From: an uncultured SAR86 cluster bacterium
GTDB taxonomy: Bacteria; Pseudomonadota; Gammaproteobacteria; Magnimaribacterales; TMED112
Direction: 5' to 3'
Length of the DNA stretch: 64,000 bases
Assembly (NCBI GenBank): GCA_902563885.1
Contig: CACEYZ010000001.1
Coordinates: 40,013-104,012 of the forward strand
Shown here: one piece after another, positions 523 through 64,000 of the stretch
How the letters are laid out: the number at the start of each line of letters is the position of its first letter
How positions within the stretch are numbered: the stretch's first letter is position 1
The notes under the pieces: generated by a model
Databases searched by the model: none
What the model saw: only the letters and a program-made list of their open reading frames with translations
What the model was told of the DNA's origin: nothing
Translations under genes and position numbers: made by a program

Positions 523-1702
523 TTTCCTTAAGCACATTTTAATTATTTTTTTAATTACGAGTTGCCAATCATTAAATAATATAGGCAACAATATTGGCAG
601 CACTATTGGTTTTATAGAGGAAGATCCTTTTGCACCTACTAAGATCCAAACTGATTATGAAAATTTTCTCAAGAGTAATTGGATAAAGAAAAATACAAAC
701 TCATTTAAATTTTCTGAATTAGGAAAAAAACGCCCAGCAAAAAATCTTTTTTTCGCATCATCAGGCGATAGACTTTTTAATATATTTGATAATTTAGAAG
801 TTATTGATATCACTACTGGAGAAACATTAAAGGAAGTCTTAATTAATGAATCTGTTATGTCAGGTGTTGCAGCTGGTTATGGTGTTTTTGTATATGTAGG
901 GGAGAATGGAGAAATTTTTGTAAACAATATCGAGAGTGGAGAAAACAGATGGAGTGCAAAATTAAATGATCAAGTTTTATCTCCTGCACTAATTACTTCA
1001 AGATATATTCTTGTACAAACATCGTCAGATGTTTTGCATGTTTTTAATTTAAGTGATGGAGAAACTGTTTGGTCAAAAAAAGCACAACCATCGCTTTTAT
1101 CTATCAGAGGCACATCTTCGCCAATGCTTTATGAGGGCTTAGTTTTTACAAGTTTTTCAAATGGTAGGCTCTCAGCTAACAGAATCACAGATGGAATTCA
1201 GTTATGGGAAAGGCCAATTTCAGTAATCAAAGGTTCAACAGAGTTAGAAAAGCTTAAAGATTCTGATAGTCAAGCAATTGCTTTCGAAGAGAGTGTTTAT
1301 GCAGCTAATTTTAATGGTTCTCTCACACGATTTAATATTCGAGATGGAGAGAAGATATTTTCTGTTGATCTATCAACCTCTAAACCGTTATTAATGTGGA
1401 GAGATACACTGCTTTCAAGCAATACAGATGATGAGATAATTCAATTTGATGCCCTTAATGGTAATGAAAAATGGCGTAATTCTAGCTTTAAATATAGAAA
1501 ACTATCAAACCTTGTTATTCATGATGGAAATTTACTTTTCGGAGATTACGAAGGCTATATACATAAATTGAATCTTCAAAATGGAGAAATTTTAGGAATT
1601 TCAAAATCTAAATTAAATTCAATAAAAAATATTGCTGTAATTTCAAATGATTTAATTATCCAGGATGATTTGGGATCAATTGAGGTTCTAAGCATCTTTT
1701 GA
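515..1702 (+). CDS. bamB: outer membrane protein assembly factor BamB (lipoprotein, beta-propeller)
   Basis: N-terminal signal peptide with lipobox LITSC. Repeated WS/W-containing propeller blades. Position between yfgM-like gene and der. Confidence 0.8.
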   Translation: MTNFLKHILIIFLITSCQSLNNIGNNIGSTIGFIEEDPFAPTKIQTDYENFLKSNWIKKNTNSFKFSELGKKRPAKNLFFASSGDRLFNIFDNLEVIDITTGETLKEVLINESVMSGVAAGYGVFVYVGENGEIFVNNIESGENRWSAKLNDQVLSPALITSRYILVQTSSDVLHVFNLSDGETVWSKKAQPSLLSIRGTSSPMLYEGLVFTSFSNGRLSANRITDGIQLWERPISVIKGSTELEKLKDSDSQAIAFEESVYAANFNGSLTRFNIRDGEKIFSVDLSTSKPLLMWRDTLLSSNTDDEIIQFDALNGNEKWRNSSFKYRKLSNLVIHDGNLLFGDYEGYIHKLNLQNGEILGISKSKLNSIKNIAVISNDLIIQDDLGSIEVLSIF

Positions 1703-3834: not shown

Positions 3835-5607
3835 ATGAGTAAAATACCTTTTTCTGAAAAAACTTACGATGTAGTTATCATAGGCGGTGGAGGCTCAGGC
3901 CTCAGAGCCTCTCTTGAAATAGCAAAATCTGGTTTAGATGTTGCTGTAATCTCAAAGGTTTTTCCTACAAGATCACATACGGTTGCTGCACAAGGGGGGA
4001 TAACATGTGCTATAGCAAGCGCAGACCCTGATGACGATTGGAGATGGCATATGTTTGATACTGTTAAAGGTTCAGACTATATAGGCGATCAAGATGCCAT
4101 TGAATATATGTGTTCAGAGGGCCCAGAGACTGTATTTGAACTAGAACATATGGGTCTTCCTTTTTCAAGATTTGAAAACGGCAGAATATACCAAAGGCCT
4201 TTTGGGGGTCAATCAAAAGAATTTGGAGAAGGAGGTCAAGCGGCTAGAACATGTGCGGCTGCAGACAGAACAGGCCATGCTTTATTGCACACTCTTTATC
4301 AGGCTAATTTAAAGGCAGGAACAAACTTTTTAAATGAATGGTTTGCAGTTGATCTCATTGAAGGGAAGAGTGGTTGTATTGCAGGTGTAAGTTGTTTTGA
4401 TATGGAAACTGGAGAAGTTTCAATAATTAAAACTCAAGCAGTTGTTCTTGCAACAGGTGGTGCTGGGCAAGTATATGAGCAAAATACAACTTCGTTGATT
4501 TGTACTGGAGATGGTTTAGGAATGGTGCTTAGGAAGAACTTTGCATTACAAGATATGGAGATGTGGCAATTTCATCCTACAGGCCTCTATGGTAATGGTT
4601 CTCTAATGACAGAAGGATGCAGGGGTGAGGGAGGTTATCTCATCAACTCAGAGGGAGAGCGTTTCATGCCAACTTATGCACCTAAAGCTAAAGATCTAGC
4701 TTCGAGAGACGTAGTTTCGAGATGTATTATTCAAGAGATAATGGCAGGACGTGGCTGCGGTGATAAAAAAGATCATGTCCTTCTGAAAATCGATCACCTT
4801 GGAGATGAAGCAATTATGAAAAAGCTTCCTGAAATAAGAGAAATTTCAATGACATTTGCAAATGTAGATCCGATAAATGAACCAATTCCTGTAGTTCCTA
4901 CATGTCATTATATGATGGGCGGCATTCCAACAAACATCAATGGACAAGTAATTACTCAAGAGAACGGAAAGGATAAAGTTGTTGATGGTCTCTACTCAAT
5001 AGGTGAGGCTGCTAATGTTTCTGTACACGGAGCGAATAGACTTGGTGGAAACTCACTTCTTGATTTAGTAGTTTTTGGAAGGTCTGCAGGCAAACACATA
5101 AATAAACAGTTCAAAAAAGGGGAAGTGTTAGATATTTCAAATGCAGAAATTGAAAAATCATTATCAACACTACAAACACTTGAAGATACAAAGAAAGGTG
5201 AGACTGTTTATGCTCTTAGATCAGAAATGCAGAGCATAATGCAGAACTATTTTGGTGTTTATAGAAATGAAAAACTCATTAAAGAGGGAATTAAAAAGCT
5301 TGAGGATGTAAACGTTAGGACAAGGAATATTCATATGAATGACAAGTCAAAACAGTTTAACTCAGAGAAAGTTGAAATCTTGGAATATCTAAATTTAATA
5401 GAAATTGCAAATGCTACAGCCTACTCTGCACTTGAAAGAAAGGAAAGTAGAGGAGCTCATGCAAGAGAAGACTATCCTGAAAGGGATGATGCAAATTGGC
5501 TATGTCACTCTTTATTTTTCAAAGATGGTAACAAAGTTTCAAAAAGGGACGTAAACTTAAACCCTAAAGAAGTAGAGGCATTTAAACCAAAAGCCAGAGT
5601 TTATTAA
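3835..5607 (+). CDS. sdhA: succinate dehydrogenase flavoprotein subunit
   Basis: FAD-binding GGGGSGLRA motif, the SHTVAAQGG histidine site for covalent FAD, and an RGEGG motif. Length is typical, about 590 aa. Confidence 0.97.
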
Positions 5608-27062: not shown

Positions 27063-27072
27063 AACCCTAAAT
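27044..27072 (+). promoter_or_regulatory. candidate sigma-32 (RpoH) heat-shock promoter for groESL
   Basis: CTTGAAA (27044-27050), 14 nt spacer, then CCCTAAAT (27065-27072), compared with consensus CTTGAAA-N13/14-CCCCATNT. Lies in the last codons of ampG, 30 nt upstream of the groES ATG. Confidence 0.35.
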
Positions 27073-27101
27073 ATTTGCAAGTTATTGGAGGATAACAGAA
27101 T

Positions 27102-29041
<1,940 letters not shown>

Positions 29042-44791: not shown

Positions 44792-45015
44792 AAAAACAGG
44801 GTTTTTTTTGTTAAAAACTGTTGATTTTCTCACAAGACCATAAACTGCCCTATTTTACAAAGGAAAATTGGAGTTAAGATATATTATTTTGATATGAAAT
44901 CTCTGAAAAGCCCATTTTAACTGGTTTTTTTTATATTGATTAAAAATTATACAAATTCATCAAAGCCTGTGCTTCATGAAGGGTTTATGAAATTTTCAGG
45001 CACTTTTCCCCAAAG

Positions 45016-45038
45016 TTATCCACAGTTTTTGTGGATAA
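45016..45038. promoter_or_regulatory. inverted pair of perfect consensus DnaA boxes
   Basis: TTATCCACA gtttt TGTGGATAA: two 9/9 consensus boxes forming a 23-bp palindrome, 25 nt upstream of the ung ATG. Confidence 0.5.
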
Positions 45039-45062
45039 AAAAAATGTGTTATTTTTAAGTAA

Positions 45063-57221: not shown

Positions 57222-57264
57222 TAATCTTTATTTTCGCGATTAAAACCTTTAAAATTTTCATTTT

Positions 57265-57474
57265 ATGGCAGTACAGAAAAGTAAAAAAACACGCAGTAGA
57301 ATTGGAATGAGGCGGTCACATGATTCTCTCAAAGAAACATCTTTATCAACAGATCCTGTGTCTGGTGAAAGGCATATAAGACATAACTTAAGTGCAGATG
57401 GCTTTTATAAAGGAAGATTAGTAAAAGATCTTAAAAAGAAAGTTAAAGAAACAGAAGAAGAAATTTCACAATAA
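57265..57474 (+). CDS. rpmF: 50S ribosomal protein L32
   Basis: [12 protein letters not shown]...RRSHD N-terminus, 69 aa. Confidence 0.93.
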
Positions 57475-57478
57475 AATC

Positions 57479-61805: not shown

Positions 61806-63026
61806 CTAGAATTCTGGGTATGCTTCGATACCAATCTCTTCGGCATCCAAACCCTTCTTCTGAATTTCATCTGAAGCTCTAACAGGGGTAATAAAGCTCA
61901 GTGCATATAAGAATGCAAAAGTTAAAATGAATCCCCATGCAAGAATAGAAACTACTCCTAGCGCTTGTGCACCAAAACTTGCCTCAGGATTGGTGAAAGG
62001 CACGACCAATACACCAAAAATTCCTGCTGTCCCGTGAGCAGAAATTGCTCCTACAGGGTCATCAACTTTTAAAACTTGCTCGAAAAATACAAGCGATCCA
62101 TAACATAGCAATCCACCAATTGCTCCAATAAGCGTAGCCTCATAGCCTGTTGGTGTATCTGGTGCTGCTGTGATAGCAACAAGACCAGAGATGGCACCAT
62201 TGAGTGCATATATTATGTTTGTTTTACCAAAAAATATTTTTGAAACAAGCAAACATGCAATTACACCGCCTCCGGCAGCCATATTAGTATTTAGGAAGAC
62301 TTGGGCAACAGCATTAGCATTGCTAGCATCATTAACAGCCAATTGAGATCCACCATTGAACCCAAACCAACCTAACCAAAGTATAAATGTACCTAATGCA
62401 GCTATTGGAATATTTGCTCCATAAAGTTTATTTACTTTACCATTAGCATATTTTCCGACTCTTGGACCAATAAATATTGCCGCGCCCAAGGCACACGCTG
62501 CACCAGCAAGGTGAACTGTACCTGATCCAGCAAAATCCGAATATCCTGCAGCATTTAAAAAGCCTGATCCCCAATTCCAAAAACCTTGAATAGGATATAT
62601 AACTCCTGCAATGAATGCTGCCAGAGCAAAGAAAGCCCACTGATTCATTCTTTCTGCAACCGCACCCGAAACTATTGATACTGCTGTGGCTACAAATACA
62701 ACCTGAAAGAAAAAATCAGCCGCATCAGCATAACCAAGATCAGTATTCATTCCAAAGTCTTCTTGTCCTTTAGATCCAAAGCCAAAATCATAAGGAGGAA
62801 TAATTCCACCTTCATTTGCTCCTGGATACATGACCATAAAGCCACATAAAAGATACATAAAGCATGCAATAGAATATAAACCTATATTCTTTGTAACAAT
62901 TTCTGCAGTATTTCTTCTTCTTACAAAACCTGCTTCAAGCATAGTGAAGCCTGCAGCCATCCACATGACAAGCGCACCTGTCATCAGTAGATAGAAGGTA
63001 TTTAAAGCGTAATCTATTTCAGCCAT
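61806..63026 (-). CDS. amtB: ammonium transporter AmtB
   Basis: 11-TM Amt family with conserved blocks (DFAGSGTVHLAGA, twin-His region AISAHGTAGI..., FGFNGGS). Starts 9 nt after the upstream porin gene. Confidence 0.95.
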   Translation of the reverse strand: MAEIDYALNTFYLLMTGALVMWMAAGFTMLEAGFVRRRNTAEIVTKNIGLYSIACFMYLLCGFMVMYPGANEGGIIPPYDFGFGSKGQEDFGMNTDLGYADAADFFFQVVFVATAVSIVSGAVAERMNQWAFFALAAFIAGVIYPIQGFWNWGSGFLNAAGYSDFAGSGTVHLAGAACALGAAIFIGPRVGKYANGKVNKLYGANIPIAALGTFILWLGWFGFNGGSQLAVNDASNANAVAQVFLNTNMAAGGGVIACLLVSKIFFGKTNIIYALNGAISGLVAITAAPDTPTGYEATLIGAIGGLLCYGSLVFFEQVLKVDDPVGAISAHGTAGIFGVLVVPFTNPEASFGAQALGVVSILAWGFILTFAFLYALSFITPVRASDEIQKKGLDAEEIGIEAYPEF

Positions 63027-63035
63027 TTTTACCCC

Positions 63036-63632
63036 TTAAAAAGATGCTCCGACTGTAAAGAACAGTCCATCCTCATCCTCTAATCCTGATGCAGCCTCTG
63101 CACTAAAAGAACTATAGCCAACTGAGGCATCATAATCGCCAAGTGAGAAACCATAACCTAGTAAGAAATTACTTCCAGTATCCTCATAGTCACCATAGGA
63201 AACAGAAAAATCACCAAAACCGTATGAAACGTCATAGTAATCTCCAAACTCATCTCCGATGTAATAAGAGAAACCTAAACCTTCATATGAAAAGGCTAAA
63301 TAAACTTCTGAAAAGTCAGCATCGTCTACTTCCGGATAACCGTAATTTATGTAGCCGATATCGTAACCAAGGCCACCTTCACTCTCACCAGAATAGCCAA
63401 AGTATGTATCGAGCTCTAAACCTGCTCCACCGAACGAAACATTTGATCCCCAAGTGCCAGCATAAAAGCCGCTCTCAGAGCTATAATCAAAACCACCACT
63501 GTAGCCGGGAGAATCCATTGTTTGTGTCATCCCTCGCCAGATGTAGTTTGATGAAAAAGTAAAGTTTGAAGATACCTCTCCAAACACATAAGTAGTCAGA
63601 AATAAGACTATAGTCATTATTCCTTTTTTCAT
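63036..63632 (-). CDS. TorF / TIGR02001 (Gcw_chp) family putative outer-membrane beta-barrel
   Basis: Signal peptide, then SSNYIWRGMTQT...P..SGGFDY...GFYAGTWGSNV...ELD.YFGY typical of this uncharacterised family. Ends in an aromatic residue (F). The second ATG (63632) is preferred, because the AAGGAG Shine-Dalgarno abuts the first. Confidence 0.75.
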   Translation of the reverse strand: MKKGIMTIVLFLTTYVFGEVSSNFTFSSNYIWRGMTQTMDSPGYSGGFDYSSESGFYAGTWGSNVSFGGAGLELDTYFGYSGESEGGLGYDIGYINYGYPEVDDADFSEVYLAFSYEGLGFSYYIGDEFGDYYDVSYGFGDFSVSYGDYEDTGSNFLLGYGFSLGDYDASVGYSSFSAEAASGLEDEDGLFFTVGASF

Positions 63633-63700
63633 AAACATCTCCTTACAAAATATAAGTGTGTTAAGAATCTAAAGGGTCAAACCTTCATAGTGTATTGGTG

Positions 63701-63747
63701 CGCGTTCCTTCAGCTTTCACTTACTTCCGTCCCCTAAGGGATGAACG
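63701..63747 (-). promoter_or_regulatory. glutamine-I riboswitch aptamer (glnA RNA motif)
   Basis: The minus strand reads CGUUCAUCCCUUAGGGGACGGAAGUAAGUGAAAGCUGAAGGAACGCG. It shows P1 CGUUC/GAACG, hairpin UCCC-UUA-GGGA, and the conserved ACGGAAGUA and CUGAAGGAACGCG segments of the glnA motif. It lies 68 nt upstream of the porin start codon. Confidence 0.8.
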
Positions 63748-63770
63748 ATTAAGACGCTGCTCCTTTATTA

Positions 63771-63836
63771 CCATGGAGTATGGTTTAACTTTTAACCCAT
63801 GTTATATGGGCTCCTTTTAACCCATGGAGTATGGGG
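63771..63836. repeat. array of three near-identical CCAT-N5-ATGG hairpins/palindromes
   Basis: CCATGGAGTATGG (63771-63783), CCCATGTTATATGGG (63796-63810) and CCCATGGAGTATGGG (63821-63835). Centres are 26 and 25 bp apart. A flanking direct repeat TTTTAACCCATG occurs at 63790 and 63815. Confidence 0.6.
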
Positions 63837-63883
63837 ATGTAAACATCTTCTTTATAAACACAATTTATAAATTAACATTCTCA

Positions 63884-63912
63884 AATTTAATATCTTATAA
63901 AATATTTGTCAA
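63884..63912 (-). promoter_or_regulatory. candidate sigma-70 promoter for the riboswitch-porin-amtB transcript
   Basis: On the minus strand: TTGACA (63912-63907), 17 nt spacer, then TAAATT (63889-63884). Confidence is weak because the background is AT-rich. Confidence 0.3.
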
Positions 63913-63952
63913 TGCAAAATAATGAAATATCTAGTAGTATTAATACATAGGA

Positions 63953-64000
63953 ATGTTTTCAGAAGATTCACATAAAGATAGTTGTGGAACAGGTATATTA
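63953..64000 (+). CDS. gltB: glutamate synthase large subunit, first 16 codons only
   Basis: MFSEDSHKDSCGTGIL resembles the GltB N-terminus, with a short propeptide followed by the catalytic Cys in a D.CG.G motif. Preceded by a GGA Shine-Dalgarno. Only 48 nt are visible. Confidence 0.5.
   Translation, partial: MFSEDSHKDSCGTGIL

Follow-up and report, generated by a model that had tools for sequence, protein, structure and literature searches.

The stretch of DNA analysed here, which we call the window, comprises 64,000 bases from an uncultured bacterium of the SAR86 cluster, a placement to which the relatives of its porin also point. Near its end it carries genes pointing away from each other: on the minus strand a putative porin gene followed by the ammonium transporter gene amtB, and on the plus strand gltB, which starts at 63953 and whose identity was confirmed via the L001 locus (99% identical to the window; metagenome-assembled genome MED-G79). 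The porin–amtB pair is preceded by an untranslated leader of approximately 250 nt, which contains an aptamer of the glutamine riboswitch family RF01739 and, 10 nt upstream of the aptamer, an array of three repeated units spanning 63760–63835 of the minus strand (76 nt). The array is the subject of this work. We consider it likely, from comparison of sequences, that it represents a strand-specific leader RNA of tandem H-type pseudoknots.

The repeat array and its conservation

The dyads at the core of the array, as read from the window sequence, are CCATGGAGTATGG at 63771–63783 and 63822–63834, and CCATGTTATATGG at 63797–63809, with neighbouring dyads 25–26 bp apart. They are the only three matches to CCAT-N5-ATGG in the whole window, compared to a mean of 0.64 in dinucleotide shuffles, where only 1 of 100 shuffles reached three. 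Tandem Repeats Finder gave a period of 25 nt in 3.0 copies for 63759–63835. The GC content is 0.42 in 63771–63836, compared to 0.33 for the window and 0.18 for the rest of the spacer up to gltB, and the direct repeat CTTTTAACCCATG flanks the dyads. These results agree with the initial annotation of this DNA, which described three almost identical dyads in a GC-richer island, flanked by a direct repeat and placed between a glutamine riboswitch and a divergent gltB. The positions that it gave are right for the dyads, but the unit extends further, as shown in Table 1. It also called the spacer the longest in the window. At 314 nt this is approximately right, except that by the crude measure of a gap free of open reading frames (ORFs) the 335 nt at 27063–27397 are similar. 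This gap is one of several other stretches of 257–335 nt in the window that contain no ORF of at least 100 codons, the rest being 44792–45062 and 57222–57478.

We compared 80 genome loci encoding relatives of the porin. The array is kept, together with one aptamer, in 12 other SAR86 genomes or contigs (L001–L011 and the metagenome contig L108), over which porin identity falls to 63%. Within this set the array is 92–100% identical (mean 96%), while identity is 81% for the aptamer, 70% for the promoter and 68% for the region after the aptamer. Third positions of shared porin codons are approximately 54% identical, that is, saturated. The identical stems had originally been taken to indicate either a protein-binding site or a recent duplication; the stems do prove invariant, an indication of sequence-specific recognition, but a recent duplication is refuted by the persistence of the array across species with saturated synonymous sites.

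An Rfam scan of the entire window at gathering thresholds detected the glutamine riboswitch only, and cmscan of 63400–64000 at E ≤ 10 matched 63699–63749 only, with nothing on 63760–63835. The initial annotation, which recognised no known motif in the array, had proposed that lack of conservation in close relatives, or a match to an Rfam family, would count against it. The outcome is in favour of the finding in both respects.

No further copies of the array type were found in the rest of the 64-kb window or elsewhere in approximately 615 kb of related loci. A dispersed repeat, of the kind represented by the many intergenic copies of repetitive extragenic palindromes (REP) or miniature inverted-repeat transposable elements (MITE), is therefore rejected. 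A protein-coding array is also rejected, on account of a 1-nt indel inside unit 3 and indels of 1, 4, 6 and 7 nt adjoining it. Because these indels break the frame, the plus-strand ORFs of 41 and 32 amino acids that lie over the array cannot be conserved. A phage origin was considered and rejected, since the two matches to viral contigs are chance matches within GC-rich coding DNA.

Predicted fold of the units

Read on the minus strand, each unit has four bases at the 3′ end of its loop that are complementary to a tetranucleotide lying beyond a 6-nt A-rich linker. The predicted fold is an H-type pseudoknot with a stem 1 of 5 bp, a loop 1 of 0–1 nt, no loop 2, a stem 2 of 4 bp and a loop 3 of 6 nt, and in this predicted fold every unit in 13 species and in three glnII leaders (see below) has loops and stems of H-type dimensions. 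Stem 2 is CUCC/GGAG in units 1 and 3 and UAAC/GUUA in unit 2. One of the readings offered initially was a minus-strand leader in which ACUCC loops pair with GGAG to form H-type pseudoknots. This is the reading favoured by the loop lengths, by the variant in L091 described below and by the conserved promoter, and it can be extended to unit 2, which had been left out, since UAAC pairs with GUUA at the same distance.

The pattern of variation follows the predicted fold. Across the 13 species 8 of the 76 array columns vary, of which 7 are predicted to be unpaired, in loop 1, the 5′ part of loop 3 and the linker between units; the sole varying paired column is in the terminal pair of unit 3. Varying columns therefore account for 7 of 22 predicted unpaired columns and 1 of 54 paired columns (Fisher p = 5e-4). 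At loop 1 the units have A or U, or no nucleotide at all. The four core pairs of stem 1 are invariant in every unit, while the aptamer stems of the same leaders co-vary. The units differ in a compensatory manner: among 13 distinct unit sequences, 99% of cells pair, compared to 25–44% in slid controls, and 4 of 9 pairs are changed on both sides. Read as DNA, the spacer of the dyad occurs in three versions, ACTCC, ATAAC and ATTTT (the last in the locus L116), and conservation of the flanks is one-sided, with an A-rich tract and GGAG or GUUA, complementary to the spacer, on one side only. A generic pseudoknot scan of 679 kb on both strands returned only approximately 30 unrelated chance matches.

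In H-type pseudoknots, a single nucleotide is enough to bridge the deep groove when stem 2 is short, and a stem 1 of 5 bp has its shallow groove crossed by an A-rich loop of approximately 6 nt, as seen in the preQ1-I riboswitch and pseudoknots of the beet western yellows virus (BWYV) type. We favour the minus strand as the pseudoknot strand because only there do the loop lengths fit the classical H-type. The mirror-image fold on the plus strand would place 1 nt across the minor groove of a 4-bp stem, which is not feasible on these stereochemical considerations. The stem 2 of L091 is CUCC/GGGG; the minus strand thereby keeps a U·G pair, while the plus strand would have C·A, a mismatch. The alternation of stem-2 sequences along the array would prevent GGAG from pairing with the loop of the next unit. 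We infer from these sequences that the array is transcribed and that stem 2 forms in vivo.

Leaders and regulation of nitrogen genes in SAR86

The features of the locus are collected in Table 1. A scan of 63500–64000 identified a single predicted sigma70-like promoter, on the minus strand with 10 of 12 consensus matches, approximately 50 nt upstream of the array. In the same scan no promoter-like site was found on the plus strand, and none lies to the left of the array; the start of gltB is approximately 40 nt from the minus-strand −35 hexamer.

Table 1. Features of the porin–amtB locus in the window, and tandem aptamers in related loci
Feature	Position	Strand	Basis and remarks
−35 hexamer TTGACA, porin–amtB leader promoter (predicted)	63907..63912	−	Promoter scan; TTGAC invariant in 12 aligned leaders
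−10 hexamer TAAATT (predicted), 17-nt spacer to −35	63884..63889	−	Promoter scan; position kept in alignment
AU-rich 5′ leader segment	63836..63883	−	74–97% pairwise identity; invariant ATG 63876–63878; UGUGUU 63857–63862
Pseudoknot unit 1	63811..63835	−	CCCAU-A-CUCC-AUGGG-UUAAAA-GGAG; predicted fold
Pseudoknot unit 2	63786..63810	−	CCCAU-A-UAAC-AUGGG-UUAAAA-GUUA; stem 2 unlike units 1 and 3 yet complementary; predicted fold
Pseudoknot unit 3 (predicted)	63760..63784	−	ACCAU-A-CUCC-AUGGU-AAUAAA-GGAG; glnII leaders L085, L091 and L100 carry the same unit
Glutamine riboswitch aptamer RF01739	63699..63749	−	65.2 bits vs gathering score 35
Post-aptamer hairpin	63669..63690	−	CUAUGAAGG-UUUGAC-CCUUUAG; loop conserved; candidate expression-platform element, possible long-range partner of the array
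Shine–Dalgarno sequence AAGGAG of porin gene	63639..63644	−	Sequence; invariant in alignment
TorF-family putative porin gene	63036..63638	−	TIGR02001, E = 6.9e-28
Ammonium transporter, marine subtype (amtB)	61806..63026	−	TIGR03644, 543 bits
Three tandem RF01739 aptamers before porin–(glnK)–amtB	L012 2682–2856; L013 2683–2858; L080 2641–2815; L111 ~890–1070		

The invariant ATG of the AU-rich segment falls near the expected transcription start. A leaderless mini-ORF beginning there (MLIYKLCL in the window) was considered and rejected: its stop varies between 5 and 8 codons and its substitutions are all non-synonymous, with no sign of a conserved peptide, so that it probably does not encode one. 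Further along the same segment, RNAalifold pairs UGUGUU with AACACA at 63657–63662, just upstream of the porin Shine–Dalgarno sequence on the minus strand. This pairing has compensatory changes at two pairs among 11 species, and the helix would enclose the entire leader as one domain. The hairpin that follows the aptamer is probably the core of the expression platform. Its outer stem co-varies (CUA/UAG vs AAU/AUU in L003), and its loop UUU(G/A)AC recurs 3′ of the aptamers in the glnII-type and three-aptamer leaders. The first ATG of the porin ORF (63636–63638) abuts AAGGAG; the second, 6 nt on (63630–63632), is a more plausible start and is likely to be the start codon.

A second context for the unit came from a metagenome pattern scan that was built to skip the amtB array. 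It returned five stretches, of which L081–L083 are chance matches in coding DNA, while L084 and L085 represent a glnII leader with the unit ACCAUACUCCAUGGU-UAAAAA-GGAG. In L084 and L085, the unit precedes a small hairpin, a pair of RF01739 aptamers and a gene for a GlnII-like glutamine synthetase. The contexts of homologous GlnII genes include L100, with the same unit and two aptamers, and L091–L093, with one aptamer and the CUCC/GGGG stem 2. In all of these (L085, L091–L093 and L100), a single unit lies approximately 10–17 nt after a predicted promoter, which is sigma70-like in L084/L085, and is followed by one or two aptamers and the GlnII-like gene. At glnII loci the unit is on the sense strand, the neighbouring genes are co-directional and there is no divergent gene. 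In L116 (2476–5393), glnII, porin and amtB are arranged head to tail in one apparent operon, behind a degenerate unit and two aptamers. Among the homologous loci, RF01739 aptamers were found in L002, L007, L010, L012, L013, L080, L084 and L085.

Unit 2 of the window is homologous to the small hairpin and AAAGUUAAA found ahead of the aptamers in glnII leaders, which makes its GUUA ancestral; a loop complementary to the GUUA of this element is found only in the amtB-type array. The sequence TGCACCA before the unit in glnII leaders was considered as an NtrC box and rejected, because the half-site spacing is wrong, and was judged to be coincidental or a relic. The unit may also occur in gene contexts beyond porin–amtB and glnII.

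Most other SAR86 porin–amtB loci (L014–L068, at approximately 2900–2990; for example L014 2940–2960) have a sigma54-type promoter, TGGCAC-N5-TTGC, and no riboswitch. Another four (L012, L013, L080 and L111) have three tandem aptamers behind a plain 5′ hairpin, and no pseudoknot. In these three-aptamer leaders, a CGUU that follows each aptamer might serve as an anti-P1 element by pairing with the P1 3′ strand, and the last aptamer is followed by CGUUAAAC...GAG-UUUGAC-UUC. One of these loci, L013, also contains an IMES-1 RNA (RF02034, 199.8 bits) at 5002–5190 on the minus strand, approximately 1.4 kb downstream of the porin gene end. GlnII genes that have ntrB–ntrC next downstream have neither riboswitch nor pseudoknot; in at least L086 (approximately 2380–2470) there is a sigma54-type promoter with NtrC-like TGCAC-N7-GTGCA boxes. 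Riboswitch-type GlnII loci, by comparison, have no ntrBC downstream. The lineages that carry the unit appear to regulate nitrogen genes by riboswitch rather than by sigma54/NtrBC.

A single clade thus has three solutions for one operon: sigma54-type promoters, three tandem aptamers, and one aptamer with three pseudoknots. SAR86 bacteria are among the most abundant in the sea, and the comparison bears on how streamlined genomes swap protein regulators for RNA. Among the loci compared, the pseudoknot unit is found only alongside a glutamine riboswitch. The motif is new: it is an accessory of glutamine-riboswitch leaders in a SAR86 subclade and lies outside any curated family.

Possible function of the array and comparison with known systems

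In the explanation that we favour, the array would be transcribed on the minus strand as part of the 5′ leader of the porin–amtB mRNA, from a conserved sigma70-type promoter. Each unit would fold as a minimal H-type pseudoknot, in which stem 1 is CCCAU/AUGGG (ACCAU/AUGGU in unit 3), stem 2 pairs CUCC or UAAC with GGAG or GUUA, and the 6-nt A-rich linker follows the minor groove of stem 1. The fold of units 1 and 3 would lock a Shine–Dalgarno-like AAGGAG against an anti-Shine–Dalgarno-like CUCC. In certain SAR86 lineages, leaders with a glutamine riboswitch would carry the unit as a modular accessory, in three copies before porin–amtB and one before glnII. A trans-acting factor, which might be an RNA-binding protein or the 30S subunit, would recognise the pseudoknots as repeated, sequence-specific sites and would add a second post-transcriptional input, on stability or translation, beside the sensing of glutamine by the aptamer. 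Recognition by a trans factor fits best because the core pairs of stem 1 are invariant while the aptamer stems co-vary, and because the same sequence occurs in two unlinked nitrogen operons in a copy number of one to three. This explanation as a whole is tentative, and we give it slightly less than an even chance; even granted the RNA reading, the trans-factor mechanism, though the most likely of those considered, is possible rather than probable.

Several observations weigh against this explanation. The compensatory differences lie between types of unit, and so represent few independent events rather than events in many lineages. When single units are folded by nearest-neighbour energies, they do no better than shuffles, albeit with a program that cannot score pseudoknots, and the promoter upstream of the array is a consensus match only. 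The degenerate unit of L116 retains ACCAU...AUGGG with the loop AUUUU, having lost both CUCC and GGAG; at least one lineage can therefore do without stem 2, and to keep the arms while the spacer is free is a pattern that a DNA dyad would also give. The AAAGUUAAA element is also present where the loop of the preceding hairpin is not complementary to it (L085, L091 and L100). Finally, no candidate for the binding factor emerged from the analysis.

In one alternative the array is a passive barrier: stable, compact 5′ pseudoknots would shield the leader from the entry or scanning of RNase E or from loading of Rho, so that mRNAs for nitrogen assimilation would be expressed more highly in lineages that lack activation by NtrC. 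The E. coli ompA mRNA is an established case of protection by structure at the 5′ end. This alternative is fairly unlikely: glnII leaders have the unit as their first structure downstream of the predicted transcription start, a plain 5′ hairpin holds that place in three-aptamer leaders, and the leader is long and untranslated, all of which would suit a barrier; however, a barrier needs structure and not sequence, so that complete invariance of the stems without covariation is unexpected, and in the window approximately 45 nt of AU-rich single strand lie ahead of unit 1. Another alternative, which we regard as unlikely, makes the array one half of the riboswitch expression platform. A long-range helix would form with the post-aptamer hairpin, and glutamine would shift the balance of folds. 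In this helix, AAAAGG (the unit 1 linker with GG) and the junction of units 2 and 3, GUUAAACC, pair with GGUUUGAC-CCUUUU, enclosing the aptamer and excluding both pseudoknots 2 and 3 and the post-aptamer hairpin. The bipartite helix was predicted by RNAalifold from 11 leaders and by single-sequence minimum free energy folds of three of four leaders; 97–100% of its cells pair, and all four variable positions remain paired by wobble. In addition, the GUUAAAC that directly follows the last aptamer in glnII-type and three-aptamer leaders is complementary to the hairpin loop GUUU(G/A)AC, and leaders of the window type have no such post-aptamer sequence, their sole GUUAAAC being in the array. Against this, the duplex and cofold energies of array and post-aptamer region are no better than those of dinucleotide shuffles (p of approximately 0.03–0.5 depending on species), the changes in the helix are one-sided with no compensatory pair, and the helix explains neither the CUCC/GGAG of units 1 and 3 nor the presence of the unit in glnII leaders, which have a local partner.

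The initial annotation also proposed that the dyads act as DNA operators. Situated downstream of the promoter, they would bind a repressor or activator of nitrogen genes and might serve gltB as well. The invariance of the dyad arms in every unit speaks for this reading, as do the three versions of the spacer, the sharing of the motif by two nitrogen operons and its position within a divergent promoter region. It is nevertheless unlikely. A symmetric operator would be conserved with two-fold symmetry, its spacer and outer flanks being free or symmetric, but here conservation is asymmetric, with the A-rich tract and GGAG or GUUA on one side, and the spacer changes together with that conserved flank (ACTCC and ATAAC are each complementary to theirs); in both contexts every unit points the same way with respect to the gene downstream; only one strand can accommodate the GGGG variant as a wobble; a spacing of 25–26 bp puts neighbouring sites on different faces of the helix; and glnII loci have no divergent gene. 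It is highly improbable that the 25-nt pseudoknots, singly or as a cooperative triple, are a new minimal sensing RNA, that is, an aptamer for a second small molecule or ion of nitrogen status such as 2-oxoglutarate, ammonium or another metabolite, which would form a two-input device with the glutamine aptamer. Their extreme conservation, above that of the neighbouring validated aptamer, their exclusive association with riboswitch-regulated nitrogen genes and the mini-ykkC precedent for small repeated hairpins would be consistent with sensing; but there is no conserved unpaired nucleotide to form a pocket (loop 1 may be A or U or may be missing, there is no loop 2, and the linker varies in its 5′ part), a unit of 25 nt is small, and L116 lacks stem 2. 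If true, a two-input riboswitch would replace the whole NtrBC/sigma54 circuit in streamlined SAR86 lineages. Hardly credible is a role as plus-strand RNA, the second of the initial readings, in which the array is a gltB leader or a set of CsrA/RsmA hairpins presenting GGA loops. On that strand the loops of units 1 and 3 do read GGAGU and the hairpins gain a G·U pair; yet the loop of unit 2 lacks GGA, the array is beyond the divergent promoter and has no promoter-like site to its left, with gltB starting so close to the minus-strand −35 hexamer, the unit is on the sense strand among co-directional neighbours in glnII contexts, the GGGG variant breaks the pairing, and the pseudoknot geometry is not feasible.

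Returning to the leader-RNA pseudoknots, the array is more conserved than the aptamer, is always on the same strand just upstream of it, and is common to two operons of nitrogen assimilation. The expression platform may have its missing part here, or a post-transcriptional regulator may bind to the array, which provides a testable lead in either case. The element is small and so far confined to one clade, and its function is something that we infer.

Marine metagenomic glnA RNAs have been reported in association with amtB and glutamine synthetase (PMC2864571, PMC6212724), and glutamine riboswitches of marine heterotrophs before genes for glutamine synthetase and ammonium transporters, where the mode of expression control was stated to be unknown (PMC6212724). 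These riboswitches are known from sequence only. In the literature searched, we found no description of a pseudoknot accompanying a glutamine riboswitch aptamer or upstream of one. The array shares its leader, context and strand with a bona fide aptamer, and relatives have one to three aptamers at that place. The RF01739 model comprises P1 (CGUUC/GAACG), the GGAAGUA/GAAGGAAC E-loop and two hairpins; the units lack the aptamer hallmarks CGUUCA, GGAAGUA and E-loop and have no score against RF01739 or RF01704. Glutamine-II (RF01704), whose model includes a 3′ tail that forms a pseudoknot, gives a partial match of 14.9 bits on the RF01739 aptamer only and none on the array.

In size and topology, the predicted units match preQ1-I and the luteovirus frameshift pseudoknots of the BWYV type, which have a 5-bp stem 1, a very short loop 1, a stem 2 of 3–4 bp and a 6–7 nt A-rich loop 3 in the minor groove of stem 1. 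The stem 2 of preQ1-I also involves a Shine–Dalgarno-like sequence. The units differ from these in lacking a loop 2 and any conserved unpaired base that could contact a ligand, in being tripled, in their distance of more than 120 nt to the start codon under regulation, and in lying outside any ORF, so that frameshifting is not applicable. For preQ1-I, whose ligand pocket is formed by a conserved loop cytidine and nucleotides of loop 2, there is no match at E ≤ 10, and loop 1 of the units is variable or deleted.

The mini-ykkC, ANTAR and CsrA motifs are likewise short, highly conserved hairpins repeated in 5′ leaders, and several are linked to nitrogen. The small repeated hairpins of mini-ykkC were first ascribed to protein binding (PMC2864571). 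The loops of these motifs (ACGR tetraloops, hexaloops and GGA) differ from the pentaloops ACUCC and AUAAC of the array, which are moreover predicted to pair downstream. Mini-ykkC was later identified as the guanidine-II riboswitch, with two hairpins carrying ACGR tetraloops, and is rejected here on loop sequence and the lack of an Rfam match. ANTAR targets, which have two hexaloop hairpins with conserved A1 and G4, the second of which overlaps a terminator, are rejected because the array has loops of 4–5 nt with other sequences and no overlapping terminator. CsrA/RsmA sites, where several short hairpins of the transcribed strand present GGA in their loops and one of them overlaps the Shine–Dalgarno sequence, are rejected because the minus-strand loops are ACUCC or AUAAC, GGA is present only in the linker and stem 2 of units 1 and 3, and transcription of the plus strand is unsupported. 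Head-to-tail pseudoknot repeats that act as protein-binding modules are known from the ToxI repeats of type III toxin–antitoxin systems and from the upstream pseudoknot domain of tobacco mosaic virus. The array resembles these in being composed of head-to-tail repeats, each of them a predicted pseudoknot, and differs in its repeat length (25 nt, compared to about 36 nt), in having no adjacent toxin gene, and in its location in a bacterial mRNA leader beside a riboswitch.

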